From the NCBI GenBank assembly GCA_002898395.1, contig BEHE01000028.1:1-12334 (forward strand): a DNA stretch of 12,334 bases. The letters run 5' to 3'. Source of the DNA: Candidatus Calditenuaceae archaeon HR02. Lineage in GTDB: Archaea; Thermoproteota; Nitrososphaeria_A; Caldarchaeales; Calditenuaceae. The notes under the pieces are model-generated. The model was not told where the DNA came from. It worked only from the letters and a program-made list of their open reading frames with translations, and made no database searches. A program made the translations under genes and the position numbers. Positions 1 to 12,334 of this stretch are shown here, piece after piece (positions within the stretch are counted from its first letter, which is position 1; each line of letters opens with the position of its first letter).

Positions 1-447
1 GAGGAGCTGCGCTCGAGGCTAATGCCACCTATGCCTGCGATTCAGTCTGTGGCCTCGGTGGTCGCCGGAATCATGACCACCATCGGTATGCAGATACTTC
101 ATCAAGGGCGCCTCGGAAAGCCGCCAACAGGCCTCATTGTTTTTGACGGCCTCAACTCTCGCCTCTCCCGCGTCAAAATCTCAAGAGATCCACACTGCAT
201 AGTATGCAGTGAAGACTATTCCGCCCCCCTCGAGTTCTCGTTCGATTTAAACGAGACTGTTTTGAAGCTTAAAGAAACACTGGCATCAGCCTTCGGATTC
301 CCTGACCCTGAAGTGTTATACGCTGGGAGGCGACTAGATGACGATGATATCCTAGCCAGGGTTGGTGTGAAGGACAGAGACATTATTTACGTCTCTACGA
401 CACGGCTTTTTGAGCCTCTAGCAATCAGGATAGTCTCCCCCACCTGA
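1..447 (+). CDS. C-terminal part of a ThiF/MoeB-family E1-like adenylyltransferase (5' end lies outside the window) with an extra C-terminal ubiquitin-like beta-grasp domain
   Basis: Frame 1 is open from nt 1. PAIQSVASVVAGIMTTIGMQILHQG...GLIVFDGLNSRLSRVKISRDPHCIVC matches the conserved C-terminal region of MoeB/ThiF (G-rich helix, xFDxxxxxFxxxxxxRxPxCxxC). The last ~75 aa align by eye with ubiquitin (see findings). Confidence 0.6.
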   Translation, partial: EELRSRLMPPMPAIQSVASVVAGIMTTIGMQILHQGRLGKPPTGLIVFDGLNSRLSRVKISRDPHCIVCSEDYSAPLEFSFDLNETVLKLKETLASAFGFPDPEVLYAGRRLDDDDILARVGVKDRDIIYVSTTRLFEPLAIRIVSPT

Positions 448-467
448 GTGTTTAGGAGGCGGCGCTC

Positions 468-1427
468 CTAGTCTTTCTCCGAAAGTATCCGCGCCACCTG
501 GGCCTCGTCGATGTTTCCACCCGTCAACATCAATACAACTTTCTTGCCGGCTATGCTGTTGCTCATCTTGTATGCTGCTGCGGTGGCTGCCGCGCCCGCA
601 TGCTCAGCTATTTGCCTGACGTGCCTGTAGAGCTTCCTTATAGCTCTCTCCATCTCACCATCTGAGACAAGCACAACATCATCAATCCTTCCACGGAGAA
701 TTGAGAAGGGGACATCATATGCCTTAGCCACGGCAAGACCCTCCGCCCTCGTCTCCACCTTATCCCTCGAGACTATCCTCCCTTGCTTCAGAGACTCATA
801 GAAGGCCGGAGCACCCTCGGCCTGAACACCTATTACCCTTATCGAGGGGTCGACCGTCTTATAGACGATGCAAGCGCCTATCGCACCCGAGCCGCCTCCT
901 ATCGGGTTGAAGACCACGTCCACACCCGGAAGCCCCCTCAGAACCTCTAGGTGCATGGTCGCCACGCCCGGGTAGAGTAGCGTCTCGTTTATTGCGTGGA
1001 TATATCTGTAGCCCCTCTCCCGGGCCAGGGCCTCAGCATAGAGGGCAGCCTCGTCAAAGAAGTTTCCATATGTTATGACGTGGGCGCCGAGCTGTTGGAG
1101 TGCCTCCTTCTTAACGTCCGACACCCAGCTAGGCATCACCACATGCACGTCAACCCCGAAGAGGCTTCCAGCATACGCTATTGACTGGGCATGATTCCCC
1201 ATGGACGCCGTTATTACCCCAGTCCTCCTCACCTCCTCAAACATCTTGTACATATAGTAGATCCCGCCCCTGACCTTGAAGGAGTGGGTGGGATTCAGAT
1301 TCTCGAGCTTAACCCATACCTCACAGCCCAACTCCCTTGAGAGACCCTTAGAATAGATGAGCGGGGTGGGCCTAAGATATCTCTTCAATATCTGCGAGGC
1401 CTCGATAACGGTCCTCAGCGTTATCAT
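468..1427 (-). CDS. PLP-dependent threonine/serine dehydratase (threonine ammonia-lyase family, short form without ACT regulatory domain)
   Basis: 319 aa ORF. SFKVRGG motif carries the PLP-binding Lys. GGGSGAIG is the glycine-rich phosphate loop. Overall fold-type II (Trp-synthase beta-like) pattern with an ATG start. Confidence 0.85.
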   Translation of the reverse strand: MITLRTVIEASQILKRYLRPTPLIYSKGLSRELGCEVWVKLENLNPTHSFKVRGGIYYMYKMFEEVRRTGVITASMGNHAQSIAYAGSLFGVDVHVVMPSWVSDVKKEALQQLGAHVITYGNFFDEAALYAEALARERGYRYIHAINETLLYPGVATMHLEVLRGLPGVDVVFNPIGGGSGAIGACIVYKTVDPSIRVIGVQAEGAPAFYESLKQGRIVSRDKVETRAEGLAVAKAYDVPFSILRGRIDDVVLVSDGEMERAIRKLYRHVRQIAEHAGAAATAAAYKMSNSIAGKKVVLMLTGGNIDEAQVARILSEKD

Positions 1428-1447
1428 GCCCAGAAACTAAGCATTCG

Positions 1448-1460
1448 TTAAATTAAAAAA
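1448..1460 (-). promoter_or_regulatory. TATA-like box for the dehydratase gene
   Basis: The minus strand reads CTTTTTAATTTAA 21-33 nt upstream of the ATG at 1427. The spacing fits a leaderless or short-leader archaeal transcript. Confidence 0.35.
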
Positions 1461-1762
1461 GATTCCCAGCAACCGTCGACGCCTAGCAGCTTAGAAGAGC
1501 TTCCGCGAATCGAGGGTCATTGCGTGTTCTCATAGGTCTGGAAAACCTTTAAACTTAAGGATTGAGAGCAGTGTTTAGGGCAATGAAGTGTCTGGCCAGG
1601 CTGAATCGATGATTGGGATCTTGAGCGCGGAGCCCCTTTAAATAGCTGAAAAAATCCTGAAATCCCCGCTATTACAGTCTTTTTCCCGCACTCTAACAAC
1701 ATTAATACAAAACCCTAATATGCATGGTGCTGGCCTCATGGGTATGGGTGTCTGCCAAGTAG

Positions 1763-2050
1763 ATGTCGGAGACCCGTGAGAGTGTCCTGATTACTAGGCT
1801 TGTCTTAGACGTCCTGAAACCCCACCAGCCCGATATTGTCGAGTTTAGTAAGAGGTTGGCAGGGGTCAAGGGGGTGAGGAGGGTGGACTCCTCTGTCCTC
1901 GAGATGGATGCGGAAACAGAGACAGTCAAGCTAATCATCGATGGCAATGACTTGGATGTAGAGGTGATAGGAGAGACGATTAAGGCTCTGGGCGGAGCCA
2001 TACATAGTGTCGACGCAACCGTCGTTGAGAAGATAGAGCGCAAGAGGTAG
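1763..2050 (+). CDS. DUF211 (COG1888) family small protein
   Basis: 95 aa. RLVLDVLKPHQPDIVEFSKRLAGVKGVRRV...ETIKALGGAIHSVD is the characteristic DUF211 signature. A TAG stop lies immediately upstream of the ATG. Confidence 0.8.
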   Translation: MSETRESVLITRLVLDVLKPHQPDIVEFSKRLAGVKGVRRVDSSVLEMDAETETVKLIIDGNDLDVEVIGETIKALGGAIHSVDATVVEKIERKR

Positions 2051-2059
2051 TGGCCCAGC

Positions 2060-2656
2060 ATGGTTTTCGGCTGGCTACGCAATCGTTTGAAGACGGTATT
2101 CGAGGTTACAGAGACAAGGGGTGTTGCTCGACGCTATTTTTCACTTCAGGTCTTCGACGGGGCCATGGTGGGCGTCGGGCTGGTCTTCGGACTCCACCTC
2201 TCAGGCCCCCATCCGTTCAGAGTTGTCGCGCAGACAGTCGTCGCCGTGTCTATTGCCATGGTTATTTCGGGGTGGACAGGAGCTCTAATATCGGAGAAGG
2301 CTGAGCAGGAGGCTAGGATCAGGAGACTTGAGCTCGCGACCCTCACAGCCCTGAGGAACACCCTCCACACGAGGGTGGGTTCTATAGCTGTGCTACTAGT
2401 CGCGCTTGTGAACGCCCTTTCACCGGTAGTAGCGCTGCTGACGGTTTCACTACCATACATGATAACGACCCTCTTGGGAGGCGAGACAGTATATGGGTTG
2501 ATATCCTCCCTCGCAGTCACCGCAGCCCTACTCCTTACAGCCGGCGCGGTAGTCGGTCGGGCCGCTGGGATAAATGTGCTTAAAACCTCAGGCCAGATGA
2601 TAGGTGCTGGCCTAGCCGCCGCAGGGCTTATAATTCTCTTCGAGACCCTCTTCTGA
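2060..2656 (+). CDS. VIT1/CCC1-like (COG1814, TIGR00267-type) integral membrane protein
   Basis: 198 aa. It has an N-terminal cytosolic segment (TRGVARRYFSLQVFDGAMVGVGLVFG) followed by several hydrophobic helices. It starts 9 nt after the DUF211 stop, so it is probably co-transcribed. Confidence 0.55.
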   Translation: MVFGWLRNRLKTVFEVTETRGVARRYFSLQVFDGAMVGVGLVFGLHLSGPHPFRVVAQTVVAVSIAMVISGWTGALISEKAEQEARIRRLELATLTALRNTLHTRVGSIAVLLVALVNALSPVVALLTVSLPYMITTLLGGETVYGLISSLAVTAALLLTAGAVVGRAAGINVLKTSGQMIGAGLAAAGLIILFETLF

Positions 2657-2670
2657 GATCCAGGCACGGA

Positions 2671-3756
2671 TTAGAAGTCGGTGAGCCTACTCTGACCCCT
2701 CTCGCTGCTAAGGTCGTAGACCCTGACCCCGATCCTTCGAAGTTCCTCTTCTAGCCCGCTTAGAAGGGCCCTTAAGAGCTGGCGGGAGACGTTCTCCAAC
2801 TCGGTTATCTCTTGCGTTTGGTGTGGGAGGGCCATGCTCTTGGTAACCGGCTTCATCCCCCTTGTTACACCTATTAGGGATACGCCTTTGAACCCATAGC
2901 CTAGTTCGATGACCCTTCGGTGTAGTTCGCGAATGGCCCCCGCCAGCTGCCCCCATATCTCAGCCTCATCCCGAGTCTGGCGCTTCAGCGTAATCATTCT
3001 ACTCATCTGTTTCGCCTCACCCCTTGGGGTCACCTGCTCAAAATATTCGCCGCGGCTGGCGAGATAGATGAACCGCCCAACCCTGAATCCGAAAACTTCC
3101 ATGAGCTTGTCGGAGGGGGTGTTTACAAGGTCGCCGATCGTTTTTATCCCCATATCCCGGAGCCTTTTGGCAGTTTTCACCCCTACATAGGGTATATCCT
3201 CTACGGGTTTGGGCTTTAGATACTGGTCCTCTGTTCCGGGTCTTATAACGAGTAGACCGTCGGGCTTAGAGTCGTCTGCCGCCATCTTTGCTAATAGCTT
3301 GTTCTTCGCAATCCCTATACTGCAGGTCAGACCAGTCCTCGCCCTAATCTCCTTTTTCAAAGACTCCATTAGACGGGCAGCATTCTCGAAGGAGCCTGCA
3401 GCCACCTCGAGCAGGCTCAGAAACGCCTCATCAATGCTAGCCACCTCAATTACGTCTGCGAACCTGCCGGCTATCTCGAAGACCTGATGTGAAAGCGCGG
3501 AGTAATAGGGCATATCGACTGGGAGGAACACTGCGTCCACGCCGCGAAGAAGCTCCTTTGCCCGCCAAATTGGAATCCCAGATCTCACCCCGTACCGCCT
3601 AGCCACATAGTTGCTGGTGGCTACCACTCCGGAATCCGGTGTCCTGCCAGAATAGACGCAGACCACTATGGGCTTATCCCGGATGGCCGGGTTGCGTAGC
3701 TCTTCAGCCTGCGCGTAGAAATAGTCTATGTCTAGGCAGGCTACGGGACCGTTCAC
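2671..3756 (-). CDS. dinB: Y-family DNA polymerase IV (Dpo4/Dbh type)
   Basis: 361 aa, collinear with Sulfolobus Dpo4: LDIDYFYAQAEELRNP..KPIVVCVYSGRT.DSGVVATSNYVARRYGV, SIDEAFL, SIGIAKNKLLAKMAADDSKP, RRIGVRV. The start codon is GTG (plus strand cac at 3754-3756). Confidence 0.95.
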   Translation of the reverse strand: MNGPVACLDIDYFYAQAEELRNPAIRDKPIVVCVYSGRTPDSGVVATSNYVARRYGVRSGIPIWRAKELLRGVDAVFLPVDMPYYSALSHQVFEIAGRFADVIEVASIDEAFLSLLEVAAGSFENAARLMESLKKEIRARTGLTCSIGIAKNKLLAKMAADDSKPDGLLVIRPGTEDQYLKPKPVEDIPYVGVKTAKRLRDMGIKTIGDLVNTPSDKLMEVFGFRVGRFIYLASRGEYFEQVTPRGEAKQMSRMITLKRQTRDEAEIWGQLAGAIRELHRRVIELGYGFKGVSLIGVTRGMKPVTKSMALPHQTQEITELENVSRQLLRALLSGLEEELRRIGVRVYDLSSERGQSRLTDF

Positions 3757-3777
3757 TGCGTCGTCCCTTTAGAGCGT

Positions 3778-3786
3778 ATTATAAAA
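3778..3786 (-). promoter_or_regulatory. TATA-like box for dinB
   Basis: The minus strand reads TTTTATAAT 22-30 nt upstream of the GTG start, which implies a leaderless or near-leaderless mRNA. Confidence 0.4.
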
Positions 3787-3848
3787 CTTTTAACCCTTAT
3801 CCGACAACCAATCTCTAAATTGTTATTTCACCACCTAAAGCCCAAGAA

Positions 3849-3862
3849 TTTAATATATATTT
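3849..3862 (+). promoter_or_regulatory. TATA-like box for mevalonate kinase
   Basis: TTTAATATATATTT lies 35-48 nt upstream of the ATG at 3897. Confidence 0.4.
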
Positions 3863-3896
3863 AGCGGACACATAATAGTTGGTTAGAGAGACTAGT

Positions 3897-4868
3897 ATGG
3901 AATCTGTGACATACTCGGCACCCGCCAAGGTCATATTCTGCGGTGAACATTATGTCGTTTACGGGGGCAGGGCTATTGCGTGTGCTATTCCTAAGAGGGC
4001 CTACGCCACAGTAGCCCGCAGGAACGACTCGCTATTGTCAATTGAGTCGCAGGACGCAAAGATATCGGCAGTATGGAAGGGGGACAAGCTGGTTAAGTGC
4101 TCGGATCAGAGTGCGCCTACGAGGCTGCGCCCACTCAAAATAATGATTGACCGCATATCTGAAATGTATGGTGTCAAGGGATTTTCCGTCGCCATCAAGT
4201 CCCAAATTCCCAGAGGGATGGGGCTCGGCTCCTCGGCCTCGGTATCACTCGCAGTGGCGTCTGCATGCCTCGCCGCGAGTGGTCACGAGGCTAATCAGAC
4301 CGAGGTTTTAGAGATTGCCTCAATTTCTGAGTCTGAAATACATTATAGGGCATCAGGTGTAGATCTTGCTGCGTCTTTGACTGGAGGGTTTATATCCTAT
4401 GTCAGGGGCGAGAGGCCGCGACCCATACCCGTCGGCGAGAAATTCAATATTATACTTGTAAGCACTAAGAAGGGAAGGAGGACTGGTAGCATTGTTAAGC
4501 AGGTCTCAACCCTTAGAGAACAGTTCATCAACGTCTTCGACAGGCTTAGACTAGTGAATGATGAGGTCGCTGCCGAGATGGAAGTTGCGCTGAGGAATCT
4601 CAGGTTTGAGAGACTCGGCTCCCTCTTTACGATTCAGCATAACCTGCTTAAGACCATTGGAGTCTCGAATAAGACTTTAGATGAAGCCGTTGAGCACGCT
4701 CTTAAGGGAGGTGCCTTAGGCGCAAAGCTCACTGGAGCTGGTGGAGGGGGCTGCGTAATCGCGATAGCACCTCAAAATAGGGTTAAAGAGGTCGCTAAAA
4801 TTATCTCCACCAAATTCCCCGCCGAGGTCTTGACGGTACCCCATGAAGGGCTTAGGCGAGAGAAGTAA
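3897..4868 (+). CDS. mvk: mevalonate kinase (GHMP kinase family)
   Basis: SAPAKVIFCGEHYVVYG is the N-terminal mevalonate kinase motif. PRGMGLGSSASVSLAVA is GHMP motif II. KLTGAGGGGCVIA is motif III. I prefer ATG 3897 over the TTG at 3879 used by the ORF track, because alignment with archaeal MVK N-termini begins there. Confidence 0.9.
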   Translation: MESVTYSAPAKVIFCGEHYVVYGGRAIACAIPKRAYATVARRNDSLLSIESQDAKISAVWKGDKLVKCSDQSAPTRLRPLKIMIDRISEMYGVKGFSVAIKSQIPRGMGLGSSASVSLAVASACLAASGHEANQTEVLEIASISESEIHYRASGVDLAASLTGGFISYVRGERPRPIPVGEKFNIILVSTKKGRRTGSIVKQVSTLREQFINVFDRLRLVNDEVAAEMEVALRNLRFERLGSLFTIQHNLLKTIGVSNKTLDEAVEHALKGGALGAKLTGAGGGGCVIAIAPQNRVKEVAKIISTKFPAEVLTVPHEGLRREK

Positions 4869-4871
4869 CCT

Positions 4872-6068
4872 TTAACTAGATTTCCGCTTAGCTAGCCTTG
4901 TGGCACTTATAACAGTTTCCAGCCCCCAAATCTTGCTGAAGCCCTCGCCGGCCTTTTGCTGGAAGACACTTCCCTTAGCATATGTCGCTATTTCATGTGA
5001 GTAGAGAGGATTCTCAGCCATTCTGCCGATAATCCTGGCTGAACCCTTGTAGAGCTCAAGCTTCACACGCCCCGTTACATTCTCTTGGGTACTTTCTATG
5101 AAGGCGTGGAGCGCGTCCATGAGCGGGTCAAGCCAGAAGCCCTGATAGACCATCTGGCTCCATATCCTCTCGACCAGGGCCTTGAAGGATAGTGTCTTGC
5201 CGTTAAGCGTGATTTTCTCCAAGTCTCTATGGGCCTTGATGAGTATGAGGGCTGCGGGAGCCTCGTAGACCTCCCTCGACTTAATTCCCACCGCCCTATC
5301 CTCTATGTGGTCTATGATTCCGAAGCCAGTTCTCCCACCGAGTATGTTGAGCTCCTGTATCAGCTCGCCTAGCGGCATGTCCCGCCCATTTAGTCCTACA
5401 GGAACCCCCCTCTCAAAGTCTATCTCCACCATCTCCACCTTGTCGGGTGCATGTTGAGGGTTGACCACGTACTTGAAGGCCTCGTAGGGTGGCTTGACCC
5501 ATGGGTCCTCCAGCTCAGCGGCCTCAATGGAGCGGCTCCAGAGATTCTCGTCTATGCTGAATCTACTCTGTCTGAAGTCCAGCTTCAGACCCCTACTCTT
5601 TGCAAACTCTATCTCCTCGTCCCTGCTCAGGTCCCACTCCCTGATCGGCGCGATGATCCTTAACTGGGGAGCCAAGACCGATATAGTTATATCGAATCTC
5701 AGCTGGTCGTTTCCTTTCCCAGTGCATCCATGTGCAACAGCCTCGCACCCTTCCCTCAAAGCAACCTCGACTACCTTTGCCGCAATAAGCGGCCTCGCAA
5801 GGGCTGTCCCTAGTGGATACTCATCTTCATAGAGCCCATTCGCCTTGATGCACGGTTTGATATAGTGTTCTACGAACTCTTTCTTCGCGTCGATGAAAAA
5901 ATGCTTTGACGCGCCTGCAGAGAGTGCCCTATCCTCAATCTCGTCGAAATCCTCGCTCTGGCCGACGTCGACCGTCACAGTTATAACCTCCGCGCCATAC
6001 TTCTCCTTCAACCAGGGGATCGAGACAGTTGTGTCAAGCCCCCCACTATAAGCTAGGGCGACCTTCAT
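4872..6068 (-). CDS. argG: argininosuccinate synthase
   Basis: 398 aa. MKVALAYSGGLDTTV is the N-type ATP-pyrophosphatase P-loop. GCTGKGNDQLRF and the length and order of motifs are typical of ArgG. Confidence 0.95.
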   Translation of the reverse strand: MKVALAYSGGLDTTVSIPWLKEKYGAEVITVTVDVGQSEDFDEIEDRALSAGASKHFFIDAKKEFVEHYIKPCIKANGLYEDEYPLGTALARPLIAAKVVEVALREGCEAVAHGCTGKGNDQLRFDITISVLAPQLRIIAPIREWDLSRDEEIEFAKSRGLKLDFRQSRFSIDENLWSRSIEAAELEDPWVKPPYEAFKYVVNPQHAPDKVEMVEIDFERGVPVGLNGRDMPLGELIQELNILGGRTGFGIIDHIEDRAVGIKSREVYEAPAALILIKAHRDLEKITLNGKTLSFKALVERIWSQMVYQGFWLDPLMDALHAFIESTQENVTGRVKLELYKGSARIIGRMAENPLYSHEIATYAKGSVFQQKAGEGFSKIWGLETVISATRLAKRKSS

Positions 6069-6091
6069 GCTTCAACCAGCACACTACGATG

Positions 6092-6100
6092 TTTTTTAAG
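6092..6100 (-). promoter_or_regulatory. TATA-like box for argG
   Basis: The minus strand reads CTTAAAAAA 24-32 nt upstream of the ATG at 6068. Confidence 0.4.
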
Positions 6101-6130
6101 ATTATTGCCTCGGGGGTTGAGGGAAACAAC

Positions 6131-6140
6131 AAATATATAC
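6131..6140 (+). promoter_or_regulatory. TATA-like box for the SCP2 gene
   Basis: AAATATATAC is centred ~27 nt upstream of the GTG at 6163. This supports that (leaderless) start. Confidence 0.4.
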
Positions 6141-6162
6141 CCAGTTTGATCTGGAATACCAC

Positions 6163-6504
6163 GTGGTTAACAAGTCTCTATCAGCACTTCGCGAACTAGT
6201 CGCACTGGCATCGGAGAAGCCTCTGATAAAGATGCGCACGGCAAGGATGGTAAAGACATTCCAGTTCAAGCCATCAGACTCCCCACCTTACTACCTCCAA
6301 ATCGTCAACGGGGTTCTAAAGGTAGGAGAGGGCGAGGCAACTAATCCAGTAGCCACAATAATAGCCACAGACGAAGACCTAGCAGGAATCATAAAGGGAA
6401 ATGTCGACCCGGTGCAGCTCTTCTTTGCCGGCCGCGTCAAGGTACAGGGTAGCCTATTCGACGCCCAAGAACTTGCCACAATCCTGAGAGACGCGGCACG
6501 ATAA
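6163..6504 (+). CDS. SCP2 (sterol carrier protein 2-like) domain protein
   Basis: 113 aa. KTFQFKPSDSPPYYLQIVNGVLKVGEG....ATIIATDEDLAGIIKGNVDPVQLFFAGRVKVQGSLFDAQELATIL follows the SCP2 domain pattern. GTG start; an alternative ATG is at 6232. Confidence 0.75.
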   Translation: MVNKSLSALRELVALASEKPLIKMRTARMVKTFQFKPSDSPPYYLQIVNGVLKVGEGEATNPVATIIATDEDLAGIIKGNVDPVQLFFAGRVKVQGSLFDAQELATILRDAAR

Positions 6505-6571
6505 GCCAGCCACCAAACCTTCGAAAAGATATTTAACATAAACTCGTATTGAGCAAAATTTTTGCAAAAGA

Positions 6572-6645
6572 TGCCGGCGGTGGGACTCGAACCCACGGCA
6601 ACGGGATTATGAGTCCCGCGCTCTACCAGCCTGAGCTACGCCGGC
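6572..6645 (-). tRNA. tRNA with CAT anticodon (elongator Met, or Ile2 if C34 is modified)
   Basis: The reverse complement folds as GCCGGCG TA GCTC AGGCTGGTA GAGC G CGGGA CTCATAA TCCCG TTGCC GTGGG TTCGAGT CCCAC CGCCGGC A. It is 74 nt, all stems are perfect, no CCA is encoded and there is no intron. Confidence 0.9.
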
Positions 6646-6850
6646 ACTCTGGCCAGCCAAACCCAACCCGCCGGCAATACAAGCAAGGAATTAGCCTCTA
6701 TTAATCCTTGATGAGCCGCGATATGCCCAAACAGGATTTGGGGGGCGTATTGGATTTAAGGGAGGACACCTGGCCTAGGCCTTCCCATGGATGAGTAACA
6801 AGCAGACTAGTTCAATCCTATTCCCAAAAAATACTTTATATCTATGCACA

Positions 6851-7645
6851 TTATTTTACTGGTTTCCCACATTTGCCGCAGAACTTGTCGCCGGGTTGGA
6901 GCGGGTTTCCACAATAGCCGCAGAAAAGCTCTCCCCCTGTAGCTGCTGTAGACGGGGCTCCGGGGGGTGGTGGGGATGGAGGCCGGAGAGAGGGTGCTGA
7001 CTCATATATGTTTGCGGCTGACCTGCCTATGAAGACCATGAAGATAGGCGAGATGATGAGGGCTATGAGCCATCCAACGAACGGTATAGCAGAAAGCCCA
7101 GCAAGCACAAGCGTTATCACGAATATTATGATTATCCAGAGAATGTAGTTCCCCCAGCCTGCTGTTCTGATTTTTGACAATATTTGGTCAAAATCAAATG
7201 CGGCCCCCATCCTTCCCGTCTTGACCATGTGTACAATCGCCATCAACGCTATTATCATTATTAAGAACACTAGAACCAACCCTATCACTACTAGCACACT
7301 ACCAACAATTCCGAGCCCGCTGAAAGGAAATAGCACGCCAGCAACAATCGCCGAAGCAGCCCCCACAGAGATCAAGGCGACAGGAACTATCATGTAGACT
7401 AATAAGACGACGAAAATTTTTGCACCATCTATCCACAGGTCCCCATATTTCTCGAGAGGTGGTGGAGCTTCTACCCTCGGTGACTCTCTGACAACCCTTG
7501 CGAAGTACCCAACCACAATGAAGTTGACTATCGGTATTATGTTCAGAACAACTAGGATGGCAAGCCTCCCGATGTCTTTGAATAGCTTGACAGTGTAGTT
7601 GTAGGCATCCCCTAAATTTTCATCGAGCCTCATACCATTACCCAC
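6851..7645 (-). CDS. DUF4013-like polytopic membrane protein with Pro-rich linker and C-terminal zinc ribbon
   Basis: GYFARVVRES....PPPLEKYGDLWIDGAKIFVVLLVYMI resembles the DUF4013 core, and there are about 6 hydrophobic helices. The C-terminus has PSLRPPSPPPPGAPS followed by CGYCGNPLQPGDKFCGKCGKPV. The ORF-track start is GTG 7645. ATG 7633 (MRLDENL...) is an equally plausible start. Confidence 0.7.
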   Translation of the reverse strand: MGNGMRLDENLGDAYNYTVKLFKDIGRLAILVVLNIIPIVNFIVVGYFARVVRESPRVEAPPPLEKYGDLWIDGAKIFVVLLVYMIVPVALISVGAASAIVAGVLFPFSGLGIVGSVLVVIGLVLVFLIMIIALMAIVHMVKTGRMGAAFDFDQILSKIRTAGWGNYILWIIIIFVITLVLAGLSAIPFVGWLIALIISPIFMVFIGRSAANIYESAPSLRPPSPPPPGAPSTAATGGELFCGYCGNPLQPGDKFCGKCGKPVK

Positions 7646-7970
7646 CTAGCTTCGATCCGCAACTAGTGCAGTATATCATGTCTGGCGCATTCACTTTTCC
7701 ACAGTTGGGACACACCTTCTCCGACGACGGGCTAGTCATGGGTGGAGTCTTTACTATAGCAGACGACTTGACGAGAACCACGTCCCCGAAAGCAATTATT
7801 TGAGACGAAGGTACTGCCTCTTCACCCCCCTCGCCCGGCTTATCATATATCAAAACAATCTTCCCCTCAGCATCATACCCAATATCCTTAACTTTTCCAA
7901 GCCTGATAGCGGAATCCGATATAATGTCCTTACCTACGATCTCATCCCTTCTGAAGTATCTTTTACCCAA
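7638..7970 (-). CDS. PRC-barrel domain protein with C-terminal zinc ribbon
   Basis: RRDEIVGKDIISDSAIRLGKVKDIGYDAEGKIVLIY...IAFGDVVLV follows the PRC-barrel pattern. The C-terminus has CPNCGKVNAPDMIYCTSCGSKL. It uses a TTG start preceded by GGTGGGTGA (SD-like) 4 nt upstream. Its stop overlaps or abuts the start of the downstream DUF4013 gene. Confidence 0.75.
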   Translation of the reverse strand: MGKRYFRRDEIVGKDIISDSAIRLGKVKDIGYDAEGKIVLIYDKPGEGGEEAVPSSQIIAFGDVVLVKSSAIVKTPPMTSPSSEKVCPNCGKVNAPDMIYCTSCGSKLGG

Positions 7971-8054
7971 AAATCACCCACCAGTACTTGGCAAATCTAG
8001 GTATTTATTCGACACATATAAGTTTTAAAAGTTTGACATGTTTAAAAATCAATT

Positions 8055-8483
8055 TGACTTTTCATAGATTCCAGTTGGGGGATATCTCGCTATGCTGGCG
8101 CGGCCGAAGCCTGATGGTGTAGGTGTCCGGCGTCTCTTTGGCTTTCCTGACAACCCTCACGGTGGAGTGGCTCTCATACAGGCGGATGTGGATAGAGTCT
8201 AAGAGAGATGCATACATGACGTATGTCTATCCCAAGACTATAAGAAGTTCTTAAAGAAGATCGGAACATCGATACTCAGGAAGCAGCATCTCATAGAATT
8301 ATCAACAAAAGCAATATGGTATTACATGGATGAGATAGGAGAGAGGAAGGACTGGTGGAAGATTTGTGAGATGCTACGGATAGCTATCGGCAGGAGAATG
8401 AAGCGCAAAGGAAAACCCAACCCCTCCCCCTTTTCTTCCTCCTTGTTACTTGCCTACCACAGTATTTGATGTATTCATAAAGA
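8055..8483 (+). repeat. Repeat copy A: diverged ~0.43 kb segment homologous to 11977-12334 (inverted); decayed coding remnant abutting the 3' end of tRNA-Thr
   Basis: Collinear blocks were matched by hand. 8074-8090 matches rc 12301-12315. 8329-8363 matches rc 12092-12126 (30/35 identical). 8394-8434 matches rc ~12020-12063. Only a broken reading frame is present (open 8203-8466, stop codon 8467-8469, no start before 8326). Confidence 0.5.
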
Positions 8484-8557
8484 AGCCTCGGGCGGGATTT
8501 GAACCCGCGACCCCCGGCTTACCAAGCCGGTGCTCCACCCGGCTGAGCTACCGAGGC
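8484..8557 (-). tRNA. tRNA-Thr(GGT)
   Basis: The reverse complement folds as GCCTCGG TA GCTC AGCCGGGTG GAGC A CCGGC TTGGTAA GCCGG GGGTC GCGGG TTCAAAT CCCGC CCGAGGC T. It is 74 nt with perfect stems, U73, no CCA and no intron. Confidence 0.9.
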
Positions 8558-8789
8558 GCACACCTATCGTTTGAAGACCGTGAATTTAGCTATTAAGGAT
8601 TTTATAGCGAAATTTTATGGATAAGAATGTTCGAGGAAGCATGGCTGGTGGGAGAGTATATGGCACTGGCATTTTGCCATGGTCGAAAGACTGGTGCTTT
8701 ACTAAGTTATTATCAGCGGTTTGCGAATCTGTTCAGGAGGGGTGGACACACTTATGAGCGGCTTGGGTTTAACTGAGTTAGTTGGAGCT

Positions 8790-8830
8790 GCGGCCGTGGT
8801 CTAGCCTGGACTAGGACGTGGGCTTTCCGA
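8790..8830 (+). tRNA. 5' piece (positions 1-38) of an interrupted/split tRNA-Gly(UCC) gene
   Basis: GCGGCCG TG GTCT AGCCTGGACTA GGAC G TGGGC TTTCCGA, after which the tRNA-like sequence ends in A/T-rich DNA. The partner piece is at 11943-11976. Confidence 0.8.
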
Positions 8831-8879
8831 GCGAATATAGATACAATCAAGTATAAGTTACTCGTAATACCTGTTGCAA

Positions 8880-8884
8880 TTTTT
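8880..8884 (+). terminator. T5 tract ~50 nt downstream of the tRNA-Gly 5' piece
   Basis: TTTTT could terminate a separately transcribed 5' half. The region is A/T-rich, so this may be chance. Confidence 0.25.
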
Positions 8885-8943
8885 AGAGAAATATAATAAG
8901 TTAAGTAATGAGAAAGTAAGAAAGTAATATCATTTGAAAACTT

Positions 8944-8953
8944 AAAATAAAAA
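8944..8953 (-). terminator. oligo-T terminator after the LAGLIDADG gene
   Basis: The minus strand reads CCCTTTTTATTTT starting ~10 nt after the TAA stop at 8963-8965. Confidence 0.4.
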
Positions 8954-8962
8954 GGGAGTGGG

Positions 8963-9814
8963 TTAGGTCGGGTTGTTTGTTATGGCTTGTAACAATTGCT
9001 GTAATCGTATCCTCTTCTTGTCTACTGTAAATCCAATTATCGCAGCGTATCTGCGAATATCTTCCTTGCGACAAATATGCAGTTCATATAATGCTTTCTT
9101 CGAAGTAATGTAACAATTTTCAGGCTCATAATAATGGCTTTTAAATCCGCCGTAGTAGATCCTTGAATATATGCCAAGCTGTTGTAAGAGATGTTTTATA
9201 TAGCGAAGTAGTTGAAGGTTTGTATTTGATATTTTTATTCTTTTCGTGCTAACTATCGGACCGCCTTCTGCGTCAGCGAATCCACGTATGAATGATTTTA
9301 CACATTCTTGGCAATGTTCTACGTATGGTATTATTGCTGAAATATCGTTGTGGTCTTTTACTCTCATACTAAGAAGGTAGAGTTCTCTACTGTATGCTCT
9401 TGCTAACCATGTTTCTTCAGACCTTATGTAATATGCTCTGTATGGTTTACTTCTCCCTAGAGCTACAGCAGCGGACCGAGCAAATTCTTCAGCAAATTCC
9501 TTATCCTTCACAGGTAAAAGGACCATGTACTTTTTCGCCTTTACTTCATAGTGTTTATATCCATCCCCTAAATATGCGCCAAGCGTGTATCCTGTCTCTG
9601 GACAATTTCTGAGTTTATTCAGTCTTTGATCAGATTTTGGTCTCCCTTTGCCATCATTCTTTGGTGTATGTATATGCCTTAGCCAGTAACTCAGCGTGGA
9701 CTTCGGGACATCTAAGCTATATTGTTGCTGGAGTATATTCCTTATTTCGTAATACGACGCCCCCTCTTTCCTTAATCTAAGTACTTCGTCATATATTTCT
9801 TCGTATTTTTTCAT
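8963..9814 (-). CDS. free-standing double-motif LAGLIDADG homing endonuclease with N-terminal helix-turn-helix domain
   Basis: Motif 1 is LGAYLGDGY. Motif 2 is IRGFADAEGG, ~99 aa later, giving D...E catalytic spacing as in single-chain enzymes such as I-DmoI. The N-terminal ~75 aa are HTH-like (GASYYEIRNILQQQYSLDVPKSTLSYWLRH). I place the start at ATG 9814 (MKKYEEIY) because GGGGAGGAGGA (SD-like) immediately precedes it. The ORF track extends to 9835. Confidence 0.85.
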   Translation of the reverse strand: MKKYEEIYDEVLRLRKEGASYYEIRNILQQQYSLDVPKSTLSYWLRHIHTPKNDGKGRPKSDQRLNKLRNCPETGYTLGAYLGDGYKHYEVKAKKYMVLLPVKDKEFAEEFARSAAVALGRSKPYRAYYIRSEETWLARAYSRELYLLSMRVKDHNDISAIIPYVEHCQECVKSFIRGFADAEGGPIVSTKRIKISNTNLQLLRYIKHLLQQLGIYSRIYYGGFKSHYYEPENCYITSKKALYELHICRKEDIRRYAAIIGFTVDKKRIRLQQLLQAITNNPT

Positions 9815-9929
9815 TCCTCCTCCCCTACAGTCCACTGTTACATTGAGTCTTTAGGAGTATAGCAGCTAAGAGGACCATGCATTTATTAGTCTTATTATAT
9901 TTATTATCCGAGATTTCACATATCTCTGT

Positions 9930-10862
9930 CTAGGCAGGGCCTTCATACGCCCCCATGGTAACGTGTTGGGGGAAGCGGCCGCTAGGCTGCGCGGCTCTGC
10001 CATGTAGAACTGTCATCAAAGTCGGAAACGCTAACTGTATTCGAAAGCACTCAGTAAAATTATCTGAAAACCAACTGGCCTCAGTGGAGTCGTTGATAGC
10101 AGTCTTTCCATCACTTGTTCCGAGTTCTCCTCCCGCGTCTTCTCCGGGACACCCTCTAGGCCTGCTCCGTTCACAGCGTGCTCCAAGCATATCTTCTAGC
10201 TCTTCACTATACGCTCCGGGAGCAGGATAGAGGTATCCGTTCACCAAAGACACGGAAGGATATCGGCCCTCATGTAGGAGATGCGTATGAGGCGCTGGCT
10301 TCGGGCCAGCGCAGCCATTATGGGAGCCTTTCACCCCAAGCTCCGGGCACCCTAAGGCTTACTAACCCTTCACCACCAACACACTCATACGCAGCGCCCC
10401 CATCGGGCCGGCCTCCCAGAGGCTCAGGCTAAAACTCCCAACGGCGAGAGCCGCCCAAGCGGAAGCCCAAGCCCAGAAGGCCCGACACAGAACCCGACCA
10501 CCCTCCGCCCGGACTCAAATATATTATCCGGGCGCCGCCAGCAAAGGTGGGAAATATATGATTCGCTCATCTTAATCAGTGCTGTCAACAGTGACCATAT
10601 CGGCCCTCCTGGAAGATGTGAGGGCCCTCAACATCTCCTCCCAGACGCCCAGCTCCTGCCAAAGCCTAAGCCTCCTCCAGGCCGTTTTGTAAGAACCGTA
10701 CTCAGCGGGCATGTCCATCCAGCGGCACCCAGTCGTCAGGACATAGAGTATGCCGTTCAGCACGCGCCTGTCATCAGCCCTAGGCCTACCACCCCTAGGC
10801 TTAGGAGGGAGAAGCGGCCTAATCAACTCCCACTCAAAGTCGCTAAGCTCCCTGAACTCCAA
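9930..10862 (-). pseudogene. decayed IS4/IS5-superfamily transposase (intact N-terminal DUF4096-like ORF 10572-10862; DDE part broken by stops and frameshifts)
   Basis: LSDFEWELIRPLLPPKPRGGRPRADDRRVLNGILYVLTTGCRWMDMPAEYGSYKTAWRRLRLWQELGVWE is the typical N-terminus of IS5/IS1031-like transposases. The ORF stops right at the first DDE aspartate region (VDSTD*). The downstream frames keep only faint transposase-like strings (e.g. GAYSEELEDML). G+C is much higher than in the flanking island DNA. Confidence 0.6.
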
Positions 10863-10887
10863 GCCGAAAACATATGACCTGAGAGAG

Positions 10888-10900
10888 CTTAAATAATTTT
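10888..10900 (+). promoter_or_regulatory. TATA-like box for the 10931 ORF
   Basis: CTTAAATAATTTT lies 31-43 nt upstream of the ATG at 10931. Confidence 0.35.
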
Positions 10901-10930
10901 GAGACGAGTTCTAAGATAAGAACTATCTGG

Positions 10931-11488
10931 ATGAATAGACCGCTCGCTTCCACTATTCTGTTGCTTATAGCAGGTGGCTTTTACATAATTGGTGGGTTCG
11001 TTGCAGCTAGCATAGTTGGGTGGCTTGGTGCTTTAACAGCCAGTCTAGGTGCTTCTGGAGTTGCACAGGAGGCGCAGGAGAGTGTTGTAATTGTCATATC
11101 TACTGGTTTTGTATCTGGAGGAGGTATTATTGTAGGTGCGCTCCTCGTTTGGACAGGAACTAGACGAAAGGTATTGATTGGTGGTATAATTGCACTAATC
11201 TTCAGCCTTATTGGTATAATAAACACTATTGGAGGTCTGATTGTAGGCTTAGTGTTAACTATAGTTGGAGCGGTCCTAGCATTCACATGGAAAGCTCATA
11301 ATGCTCATACAAGCTTAAGAACGAGCAACTATCATACATCCTCTAACTACATCAATACGCAGATAACAAAGAAGCTTAGAAACGTGCCAGATAGGTGCCC
11401 TAGATGTGGAGGATACAATATCGTAGGATACACGGGTATTTATGACTGCTTCGACTGCGGCTATAAGTTTGCTGAAGAACATGTCTAA
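10931..11488 (+). CDS. hypothetical Gly-rich 4-TM membrane protein with C-terminal zinc ribbon
   Basis: 185 aa with four hydrophobic Gly/Ile-rich helices, a polar linker, then CPRCGGYNIVGYTGIYDCFDCGYKF. I recognise no family. Confidence 0.55.
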   Translation: MNRPLASTILLLIAGGFYIIGGFVAASIVGWLGALTASLGASGVAQEAQESVVIVISTGFVSGGGIIVGALLVWTGTRRKVLIGGIIALIFSLIGIINTIGGLIVGLVLTIVGAVLAFTWKAHNAHTSLRTSNYHTSSNYINTQITKKLRNVPDRCPRCGGYNIVGYTGIYDCFDCGYKFAEEHV

Positions 11489-11796
11489 CGCTCTTGCCTC
11501 TCTAGTTCAGCAGCTAATAATGCTGCCTTCCATCGTGGTCGATTTTGCTAACGGATAATGTTTTCAGAAATGATGACTGAGTATCAATGAGAACCTTAAA
11601 AAAGATTATCTGAGATTCTTAGATATGGTCTTTGACAGTTAATGTACAATAAGGGCCTGTATTATTCTATTATTTCTATTCCCTCATCTTGGGCCTCATA
11701 GGGCCTGCTAGTTTAGGTAGTCCCATGAATATGCCAATAAACTATATGTAGTAGCATAAACTCTTCTAACTATGGACGCCTAACATTTATTATTAT

Positions 11797-11801
11797 AAAA
11801 A
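11797..11801 (-). terminator. oligo-T tract directly after the intact tRNA-Gly
   Basis: The minus strand reads TTTTTATAATAATAA immediately after the discriminator base. Confidence 0.4.
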
Positions 11802-11877
11802 TGCGGCCGGCGGGATTTGAACCCGCGATCGCTGGGTTGGAAACCCAGCGTCCTAGTCCAGGCTAGACGACGGCCGC
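11802..11877 (-). tRNA. tRNA-Gly(TCC), intact
   Basis: The reverse complement folds as GCGGCCG TC GTCT AGCCTGGACTA GGAC G CTGGG TTTCCAA CCCAG CGATC GCGGG TTCAAAT CCCGC CGGCCGC A. It is 76 nt with perfect stems and no intron. Confidence 0.92.
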
Positions 11878-11901
11878 TAGTTTAATTATTCTTTTATGGG
11901 A

Positions 11902-11910
11902 GTTATTTAG
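11902..11910 (-). promoter_or_regulatory. TATA-like box for the intact tRNA-Gly
   Basis: The minus strand reads CTAAATAAC at -33 to -25 relative to the tRNA 5' end. Confidence 0.4.
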
Positions 11911-11942
11911 GTTTCGCTCTATGATTATATGTAGTTATAGTG

Positions 11943-11976
11943 CCCAATACCCGGGTTCAAATCCCGGCGGCCGCAA
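11943..11976 (+). tRNA. 3' piece (positions 39-73) of the interrupted/split tRNA-Gly(UCC) gene
   Basis: GCCCA ATAC CCGGG TTCAAAT CCCGG CGGCCGC A. The anticodon-stem strand is complementary 5/5 to 8819-8823. The acceptor strand is complementary 7/7 to 8790-8796. It is followed by T-rich sequence (ATTTTAATAATTATGGCTTTTT). Confidence 0.8.
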
Positions 11977-12334
11977 TTTTAATAATTATGGCTTTTTCAA
12001 TGTGGTAAGTATGAGGGGATAAAGGGGGAGGGGGCGGGTTATCGTCTGCGCTTCAACATTCTCTTACCTACCCCATTTGTTGTTTTGGCTCATCTTCCAC
12101 CAATACTTCCCTTCTCCTATCTCGTCCACATAACGCCGTATCATCTTGTTGAGGGTTCGATACCCCCGCCGCTAGTAGTGGTGCATATAGTTAGGTGCCT
12201 TAAATACTCCCCAAAACACCAACAATACGTATACACAAAACAGGGCCAGATACAACACAAAGCAAAGAAAAAAACTCGTGAAGATAAATAAGCTATCCAG
12301 AGATATACCCCCGACGAGGGCTTAAAAGCCTCTA
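11977..12334 (-). repeat. Repeat copy B: inverted, diverged homologue of 8055-8483, abutting the 3' end of the tRNA-Gly 3' piece; runs off the window
   Basis: It shows the same collinear blocks as copy A. The minus-strand frame reads ...RRGYRTLNKMIRRYVDEIGEGKYWWKMSQ..., versus ...LSTKAIWYYMDEIGERKDWWKICEML... in copy A. Confidence 0.5.

Follow-up and report, generated by a model that had tools for sequence, protein, structure and literature searches.

A free-standing LAGLIDADG endonuclease gene at a broken tRNA-Gly gene in a Calditenuaceae archaeon, and the linkage of its family to tRNA genes

To our knowledge, homing endonucleases in essential genes are thought to survive only within self-splicing introns or inteins, and free-standing homing endonucleases are known mainly from phages. 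SegB of phage T4 homes in the T4 tRNA region, and I-Ssp6803I is the endonuclease of a group I intron in the anticodon loop of the cyanobacterial tRNA-fMet gene. Enzymes of the I-DmoI type are encoded, in sense orientation, in the bulge-helix-bulge (BHB) introns of rRNA genes or in inteins, and their targets are rRNA or protein genes. In contrast, the gene described here is free-standing and linked to tRNA. It lies in a stretch of 12,334 nucleotides from the hot-spring metagenomic genome of Candidatus Calditenuaceae archaeon HR02 (contig BEHE01000028.1 in its entirety, positions 1 to 12,334, forward strand; hereafter the window), where an intact helix-turn-helix (HTH)-LAGLIDADG homing endonuclease gene, HEG_new, occupies one end of an insertion that interrupts a gene for tRNA-Gly(UCC). 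The reading we prefer, with a probability of roughly 0.7, is that HEG_new encodes a free-standing, monomeric endonuclease predicted to be active, that it belongs to a selfish family which lands on tRNA genes, and that the segment carrying it broke tRNA-Gly(UCC). Judged from sequence searches, this family is large, uncharacterised and expanded in Caldarchaeales (Aigarchaeota) and neighbouring Thermoproteota.

HEG_new is an open reading frame (ORF) on the minus strand at 8963..9814, running from an ATG at 9814-9812 to a TAA at 8965-8963, and its product of 283 aa and the deposited hypothetical protein HRbin02_01883 have identical sequences (100%). An in-frame GTG upstream, at 9835, would add 7 residues and yield an alternative product of 290 aa. 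A previous sequence-only reading of the window had placed the gene at these positions with a product of this length, and the coordinates, start and stop agreed when they were read again. The Shine-Dalgarno-like sequence and the oligo-T stretch that it had described were likewise seen, the former as GTGGACTGTAGGGGAGGAGGA / GGGGAGGAGGA immediately 5' of the ATG and the latter as CCCACTCCCTTTTTATTTTAAG, with oligo-T runs (CCCTTTTTATTTT), immediately 3' of the stop. The 5' leader (9815..9930, minus strand) has a TATA-like A/T-rich stretch about 80-95 nt upstream of the ATG and probably contains the gene's own promoter, and the oligo-T runs are plausible as an archaeal terminator. Between the stop and the tRNA break lies an A/T-rich 3' spacer (8833..8962, minus strand) with a GC content of 35-40%, as against 47-53% in host genes. 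Its length of 130 nt bears out the earlier statement that the gene ends about 130 bp from the left junction, antisense to the broken tRNA.

Profile searches and structure prediction agree on the nature of the product. Residues 170-261 match Pfam LAGLIDADG_3 (E=4.5e-17), and phmmer against the PDB aligned I-DmoI with residues 74-224, spanning both motifs, such that LGAYLGDGY falls on the first LAGLIDADG motif of I-DmoI and IRGFADAEGG on the second; the GDG of HEG_new (D84) stands opposite D21 of I-DmoI, and the AEG (E183) opposite E117. NCBIfam matches were confined to the endonuclease inserts of intein-containing proteins, and no intein blocks were found in HEG_new. In an exhaustive HMMER search over 1.84 billion representatives 1108 sequences passed E<1e-3 and 290 passed E<1e-10; even the nearest is only 41-44% identical. 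In an alignment of 36 family members D84, D181, G184, N197 and K267 are invariant, and E183 is kept in at least 90%; the claim that both catalytic motifs are intact is thus upheld. An AlphaFold2 model built on the same alignment (mean predicted local distance difference test score, pLDDT, 91.3) shows an N-terminal bundle of three helices (2-16, 21-32 and 38-45), followed by a linker modelled at low confidence (about 46-71) and by two lobes of alpha-beta-beta-alpha-beta-beta-alpha topology headed by the LAGLIDADG helices 72-84 and 169-183, the secondary structure of the core reading H72-84 E E H E E H / H169-183 E E H E E E E H. When this model was compared with the PDB by Foldseek the best match was I-DmoI (E=4e-9, template modelling (TM) score 0.70 normalised to target). 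I-DmoI accounted for the top 30-plus matches (TM 0.66-0.72, same normalisation), followed by PI-PfuI and then by other intein or intron LAGLIDADG enzymes, with WhiA far lower in the list (E about 1e-6). Moreover, the N-terminal part of the relatives matches Pfam HTH_23, HTH_38 and HTH_7. HEG_new is, as had been proposed from its letters, a two-domain LAGLIDADG enzyme with an added N-terminal HTH and with its active-site acidic residues intact.

The tRNA-Gly(UCC) gene on which HEG_new converges is in two pieces on the plus strand. Its 5' half, tRNA positions 1 to 38-40, is at 8790..8832, its 3' half, with the T-arm signature, at 11942..11975, and 3109 bp (8833..11941) lie between them. ARAGORN recognised the joined halves (8790-8832 + 11942-11975) as tRNA-Gly(tcc). 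Two nucleotides, GC, are common to both junctions, which sets the break at positions 38-40, in the 3' strand of the anticodon stem. Metagenomes were scanned with a 22-nt pattern lying wholly inside the 5' half, and hence blind to the interruption, and 12 contigs were returned. All 12 run straight from the 5' half into the 3' half. The uninterrupted gene equals the joined halves exactly in 10 of them and has one D-loop mismatch in the other 2; the 3' half is 100% identical in every one. Since the gene is uninterrupted in 12/12 relatives, the 3109 bp are an insertion specific to this contig, and the insertion is derived and real. The uninterrupted anticodon-arm sequence that the sequence-only reading had postulated as a target therefore exists, in 12/12 related contigs. 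Its intact resident form is gone from the genome of HEG_new itself; this loss is consistent with the proposed target and is not evidence for it. HEG_new stands at one end of the insertion, in the family's usual convergent orientation toward the tRNA-Gly 5' part, and a spare tRNA-Gly gene (tRNA-Gly') stands at the other.

Linkage to tRNA genes extends through much of the family. We scanned one genome per GTDB species with a pattern made from four sequences and with tblastn, and obtained 30 family loci, 28 of them archaeal, mostly from Caldarchaeales/Aigarchaeota with some from Nitrososphaerota and Bathyarchaeia; several metagenome-assembled genomes (MAGs) carried three or four copies. With the endonuclease gene drawn on the plus strand, an Rfam-confirmed convergent (minus-strand) tRNA lies within 250 bp of its 3' end at 11 of the 28 archaeal genome loci (L014, L017, L018, L020, L022, L023, L024, L025, L028, L030, L035), and in several of these cases the gene runs up to, or into, the 3' end of the tRNA. 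The same loci hold 8 other tRNAs in 277 kb, a background against which 11/28 has a binomial P~3e-20. Four further convergent cases (L010, L011, L012, L027) were recognised by ARAGORN with introns or by eye, and six loci (L013, L015, L016, L024, L026, L027) have a co-directional tRNA 150-1100 bp upstream of the gene. Five look-ups were picked independently of the genome scan (P0153, P0154, P0183, P0004, P0247), and three were tRNA-linked: P0153 and P0154, the closest relatives at 42% identity (L050, L051/L052), lie 45-80 bp from a convergent intron-containing tRNA-Pro, among housekeeping genes, and P0183 (L054) overlaps a convergent tRNA-Val. No adjacent tRNA was found at P0004 or P0247. In this context the family genes stand alone among housekeeping neighbours, for example HisRS, ArgRS and a major facilitator superfamily (MFS) transporter. 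These counts bear out the expectation that homologues neighbour tRNA loci, and the usual resting place of the family is immediately 3' of a tRNA gene, mostly in convergent orientation. More distant members, P0003 (L001-L006) and P0237 (L056), sit in virus-like contexts with short co-directional ORFs and DNA methyltransferases. No tRNA is near these genes, so only a subgroup of the HTH-LAGLIDADG proteins can be called tRNA-linked.

The tRNA linkage of a free-standing archaeal LAGLIDADG family is a new result of this analysis. Open-access full texts yielded no description of such a family, which is not proof of novelty, and the only such enzymes that the Caldiarchaeum genome paper names are rRNA endonucleases encoded in introns.

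Some further features of the family loci may be noted. Many of the adjacent tRNA genes contain introns, some of them long or non-canonical (L010, L011, L017, L022, L023, L024, L025, L030, L050, L051). At L023:6488-6620 the tRNA-Val beside the family gene is present twice, 100% identical and with a run of N between the copies, probably as an artefact of a scaffolding gap, and an ARAGORN 'tRNA-Ser' at 5621-5709 of L012 looks spurious. P0004 (L053:5001-6602; 533 aa) is a tandem protein in which an extra N-terminal LAGLIDADG unit with degenerate motifs (LGNG, ADARG) precedes a full HTH-LAGLIDADG; a second family gene lies 1.6 kb upstream of it, and there is no adjacent tRNA. The family tree does not follow tRNA identity, as paralogues of one genome adjoin different tRNAs. 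A conserved partner ORF upstream of the family genes was also rejected, the small ORFs of L050, L051 and L054 being mutually non-homologous and unlike anything in the window.

The family loci record both decay and spread. Downstream of tRNA-Gly(UCC) a family gene or its remnant is present in L047, L049, L041 and L042, and five other contigs have an unrelated gene there. The decay series at this site passes from a near-full-length, frame-shifted gene (L047) through a C-terminal third (L041) and the remnant in the window to a scar in L043, and ends with relatives that have no trace of the gene. This scar, about 25 codons in antisense within the first ~100 nt after tRNA-Gly(UCC) (about 759-860; ...RRYLPRELRIKRRRPEFPQPKS*), fuses an N-terminal family motif to a sequence like the C-terminal tail, as if almost the whole family gene had been deleted. 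Presence of the family at orthologous sites is accordingly patchy as well as graded in degeneration. In the MAG SKYB24 (L011, L014, L020, L052) paralogues 80-83% identical in DNA stand at tRNA-Val, tRNA-Ser and tRNA-Pro. The similarity of L011 and L014 extends through the spacer and ends ~25 nt into the tRNA 3' end, and L020 and L052 have a 200-nt 5' segment in common at 92% with the rest of the genes different, a pattern that indicates recent intragenomic spread and recombination between copies. In L047 the paralogues at tRNA-Thr and at tRNA-Gly are each 77% identical to one family protein over the first ~200 aa.

Displaced pieces of tRNA genes accompany several copies. In a Bathyarchaeota MAG (L030:2843-3986) the family gene (2945-3892, plus strand) is followed 4 nt past its stop by a complete intron-containing tRNA-Val on the minus strand, and preceded, ~69 nt before its start, by a displaced tRNA 3' fragment of 34-37 nt, also on the minus strand, that is 85% identical and has compensatory differences in the T stem. 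This fragment begins at tRNA position 40, which is the break position in the window. The closest genome relative of HEG_new (L008, from Ca. Terraquivivens, 45% identity) has a tRNA 3' fragment 1.2 kb upstream that consists of T arm and acceptor with no 5' partner (L008:4716-4760), and after its stop a 19-nt 3'-terminal tRNA fragment that abuts an opposite-strand 3' fragment of another tRNA (L008:6925-6976). In L024:6880-7213 the 3' two-thirds of tRNA-Lys(UUU), with a degenerate T stem, lie next to the stop of the family gene, between it and a complete intron-containing tRNA-Arg. An att-type repeat of the tRNA 3' end was absent in 20 of the 22 loci checked. Taken together, the decay series, the recent paralogues at different tRNAs and the displaced tRNA fragments point to selfish homing elements.

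The window itself holds decayed relatives of HEG_new. Remnant A (8168..8440, plus strand), the decayed C-terminal part of a second family member, converges on tRNA-Thr(GGU) (8484..8557, minus strand; ARAGORN, Rfam 69.6 bits) and ends ~45 nt from its 3' end; in blastx two of its frames matched residues 224-299 of the family protein P0111 (E=1.6e-8 and 1e-9). An inverted repeat connects this region with the right end of the window (8314-8449 against 12005-12141, with 80% identity over 50 nt and 76% over 51 nt). The right-hand sequence (12005..12141, minus strand) converges on the 3' end of the broken tRNA-Gly, has 12/22 aa identical to remnant A, and is probably what decay has left of a third family member; the contig itself stops at 12334. 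Undecayed forms of this layout are present in L047, L049 and L041, where a family gene, a convergent tRNA-Thr, the tRNA-Gly(UCC) and a convergent family gene follow one another. The gene adjoining tRNA-Thr at the position of remnant A is full-length in L049 and L041 and frame-shifted in L047. Judged from these arrangements, a family gene probably already flanked the resident tRNA-Gly on its 3' side when a second element struck the body of the tRNA gene.

Mechanistically, the preferred reading would run as follows. In a tRNA locus without the element, the enzyme would make a double-strand break in or next to the tRNA gene, and repair would copy the element into the cut locus; tRNA genes, conserved and universally present, would serve as landing sites. 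In the window the 3.1-kb segment with HEG_new at one end has landed inside the body of tRNA-Gly(UCC) and destroyed the gene, and glycine decoding would presumably be kept up by tRNA-Gly' at the segment's other end, provided that this gene is resistant and functional. A bolder form, in which a homing element with no intron or intein can insert itself within an essential tRNA gene by bringing a cleavage-resistant spare (a 'spare-tyre' cassette), and in which a guild of HTH-LAGLIDADG enzymes in Caldarchaeales and related archaea homes on tRNA genes and causes their breakage, replacement and rearrangement, is possible but in our view doubtful. The pairing of endonuclease and spare tRNA may not be a designed unit, and the spare may be just the reason why an accident survived.

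The preferred reading should be taken with some caution, since a number of observations weigh against it. First, the insert is composite, comprising a fragment of an insertion sequence (IS) of the IS5 family, a G+C-rich stretch and an unrelated ORF, and HEG_new may be a passenger in it. Secondly, the spare tRNA and the broken gene have opposite orientations and the junctions overlap by 2 nt, neither of which fits simple homologous repair; classical end joining, for its part, is mostly missing in archaea. Thirdly, most relatives lie outside an intact tRNA, and what the family normally targets may be the 3' end of the tRNA or its flank. The sequence of tRNA-Gly(UCC) is also unchanged with or without a downstream family gene, and because it is identical in both states the relatives' enzymes cannot recognise the tRNA body alone. 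From this comparison, their recognition site must extend into the tRNA flank, unless those enzymes are inactive. Moreover, HEG_new has no close relative (42-45% identity at best), no second copy of the insertion is at hand to prove homing, and the joined anticodon arm of tRNA-Gly(UCC) is a putative target. Finally, the right-hand remnant at 12005..12141 has no significant direct match to the family, so that its support is indirect.

The alternative that survives best, unlikely as we hold it to be, is that the 3.1-kb segment entered tRNA-Gly independently of the endonuclease, by IS5-type transposition or illegitimate recombination, with HEG_new and tRNA-Gly' carried along, and that the insertion persisted only thanks to the tRNA-Gly(UCC) that chanced to come with it. 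The contents of the insert can be read in its favor. From left to right these are HEG_new (minus strand), the G+C-rich stretch, the IS5 fragment, an ORF of 185 aa (plus strand) and tRNA-Gly'. The G+C-rich stretch (9931..10571; 640 bp, 53-60%) showed no Pfam match for its 134-aa ORF, no Rfam match and no similarity to the other loci. The fragment of the IS5-family transposase (10572..10862, minus strand) comprises 96 aa of the N-terminal part and matches DUF4096 (PF13340, E=1.7e-29), with NCBIfam transpos_IS5_3 below cut-off. The passenger ORF (10931..11488, plus strand) has predicted transmembrane segments and a C-terminal Zn-ribbon-like CxxC...CxxC, gave only sub-threshold Pfam matches and is absent from the other loci. 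To this mosaic composition can be added that the 2-nt GC at both junctions is conceivably a short duplication of the target, such as some IS5 subgroups make, and that protein searches found no second copy of HEG_new.

Of the transposase, however, only 96 N-terminal residues are present, and these lie mid-insert; no DDE domain was found in frame translations around 10572..10862, and no convincing terminal inverted repeats were seen at the insertion ends, so that an IS5 insertion sequence or composite transposon is unlikely. Integration by a tyrosine integrase was rejected, as no integrase domain was found by Pfam or NCBIfam in the four insert ORFs scanned and no att-like repeats border the insertion, the overlap at the junctions being only 2 nt. 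Searches of IMG/VR (DNA and protein patterns), INPHARED (tblastn) and PLSDB gave no match that would trace the insert or tRNA-Gly' to a virus or plasmid. The spare gene is an intact, divergent tRNA-Gly(UCC) (11802..11877, minus strand; ARAGORN, Rfam 63.4 bits), 64 nt from the right junction and ~84% identical to the resident gene, with differences in the anticodon stem, variable loop and T stem. Its upstream region (11878..11941, minus strand) includes a TATA-like box (CATAAAAGAATAATTAAAC) that may act for it. Among the fetched loci its nearest relative is the tRNA-Gly(GCC) of L016 (77% identity, including 32 nt upstream), which has a family gene co-directionally downstream. It also tells against an independent entry that the family-wide linkage makes a chance meeting of HEG_new with a broken tRNA unlikely, that HEG_new points toward the tRNA 5' part in the family's standard convergent orientation, and that the break in L030 falls at the identical tRNA position.

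It could also be argued, in place of the selfish element that we favor, that the protein has lost its selfish role and become a domesticated DNA-binding protein, a regulator or chromatin factor associated with tRNA genes in the manner of WhiA. The combination of LAGLIDADG and HTH is that of WhiA, WhiA appears in the Foldseek list, and a site beside tRNA genes is compatible with such a role. Against this stand the conserved catalytic acidic residues of both motifs, the decayed copies, scars, patchy orthologous presence and several divergent paralogues per genome, and the far better match of I-DmoI and the intein endonucleases than of WhiA. We therefore give domestication only a slim chance.

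A functional split tRNA or giant intron, whose halves the archaeal splicing endonuclease would join as RNA, on the model of the split tRNAs of Nanoarchaeum and Caldivirga, is less credible still, even though the break adjoins the canonical intron position 37/38. A 7-bp complementarity (GAGCGAA/TTCGCTC, as RNA GAGCGAA/UUCGCUC) links the 5' junction (8829-8835) with a position (11913-11919) that lies within the insert, 22 nt from its right end, and could be cited in support; it is possibly due to chance, and for a thermophile the paired segments are short and rich in A/U. When the half-transcripts were cofolded this helix buried the 5' junction and formed no bulge. At the insertion junctions no BHB motif was present in any of three registers (1-2 of 4 pairs in the central helix in each), and an Rfam scan of the window found no intron family and no other non-tRNA RNA family. 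Since no BHB motif fits any register, both a BHB intron and a trans-spliced split tRNA were rejected, and the insertion is neither an intron nor part of a split tRNA. A complete tRNA-Gly(UCC) 64 nt away and a continuous gene in 12/12 relatives argue in the same direction. The earlier view that HEG_new is free-standing and not an intron ORF, which was founded on its antisense orientation to the tRNA, is strengthened by the absence of both the BHB motif and an Rfam intron. That the locus is a metagenomic chimera joined at tRNA-like repeats is hardly to be believed either, for although this is a MAG contig and the two tRNA-Gly genes share near-identical inverted stretches of 29 and 24 nt, the junctions lie outside these stretches, in the anticodon stem where the two genes differ, and two independent chimeric joins would not yield halves that are exactly complementary with an overlap of only 2 nt.

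Three complete tRNAs were found in the window by ARAGORN and Rfam, namely Met (6572-6645, minus strand), Thr, and Gly-UCC (tRNA-Gly'). The tRNA-Met, with ~70-140 bp around it, is flipped relative to mvk/argG/SCP2 (window 6572-6712 compared with L041:339-449 and L048:11717-11856); L041 has a family-gene remnant convergent on tRNA-Met, and none was found there in the window.

A whole family of free-standing archaeal LAGLIDADG genes thus appears to be specialised on tRNA genes, the same landing sites that integrases favor, and one of its members has split a tRNA gene and brought a replacement along. If these enzymes do cut tRNA genes, they would constitute a new and testable source of tRNA gene fragmentation and of xenologous tRNA replacement in archaea, and would give a mechanistic handle on the origin of split and disrupted tRNA genes. 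In the bolder form of the reading they would also offer a concrete route to the disrupted and split tRNA genes of archaea; the break at 38-40 adjoins the canonical 37/38 split or intron site and recurs in L030. For enzyme engineering, the family could supply thermostable LAGLIDADG scaffolds to which an HTH module has been added and whose specificities have diversified in nature.

Compared with described systems, HEG_new has the fold of I-DmoI, I-Tsp061I, PI-PfuI and PI-SceI, with two LAGLIDADG helices that end in an acidic residue. It differs from enzymes of the I-DmoI type in the extra N-terminal HTH on a linker of ~25 aa, and its identity to them is only about 19-20%. WhiA, a bacterial transcription factor that has lost the catalytic residues, likewise combines LAGLIDADG with HTH and is the weaker structural match; its HTH is C-terminal and it is a single conserved copy, whereas the HEG_new family has an N-terminal HTH, keeps its catalytic residues, and is multi-copy and decaying. 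The archaeal tyrosine integrases of the SSV and pNOB8 types also use tRNA genes as landing sites, and the displaced fragments in L030, L008 and L024 resemble att remnants. Unlike integrase elements, however, the insert has no integrase, most family loci lack an att repeat, and the unit is usually a single gene of ~1 kb. I-Ssp6803I has its home in the anticodon region as HEG_new does, but there a self-splicing intron restores the tRNA, whereas nothing splices in the HEG_new insert and rescue would come from a second tRNA gene. A link of T4 SegB to tRNA loci is mentioned in PMC13096335. SegB exemplifies 'intronless homing' and is likewise a stand-alone endonuclease gene beside tRNA genes, and its presumed mechanism, a cut in the allele without the gene followed by co-conversion with the flanks, is the one to which we liken that of the family. 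SegB is, however, a GIY-YIG enzyme of a phage, whereas the family of HEG_new is of the LAGLIDADG type and resides in archaeal chromosomes, in many copies per genome, each at a different tRNA, and in one case, with a spare tRNA, inside a tRNA gene.

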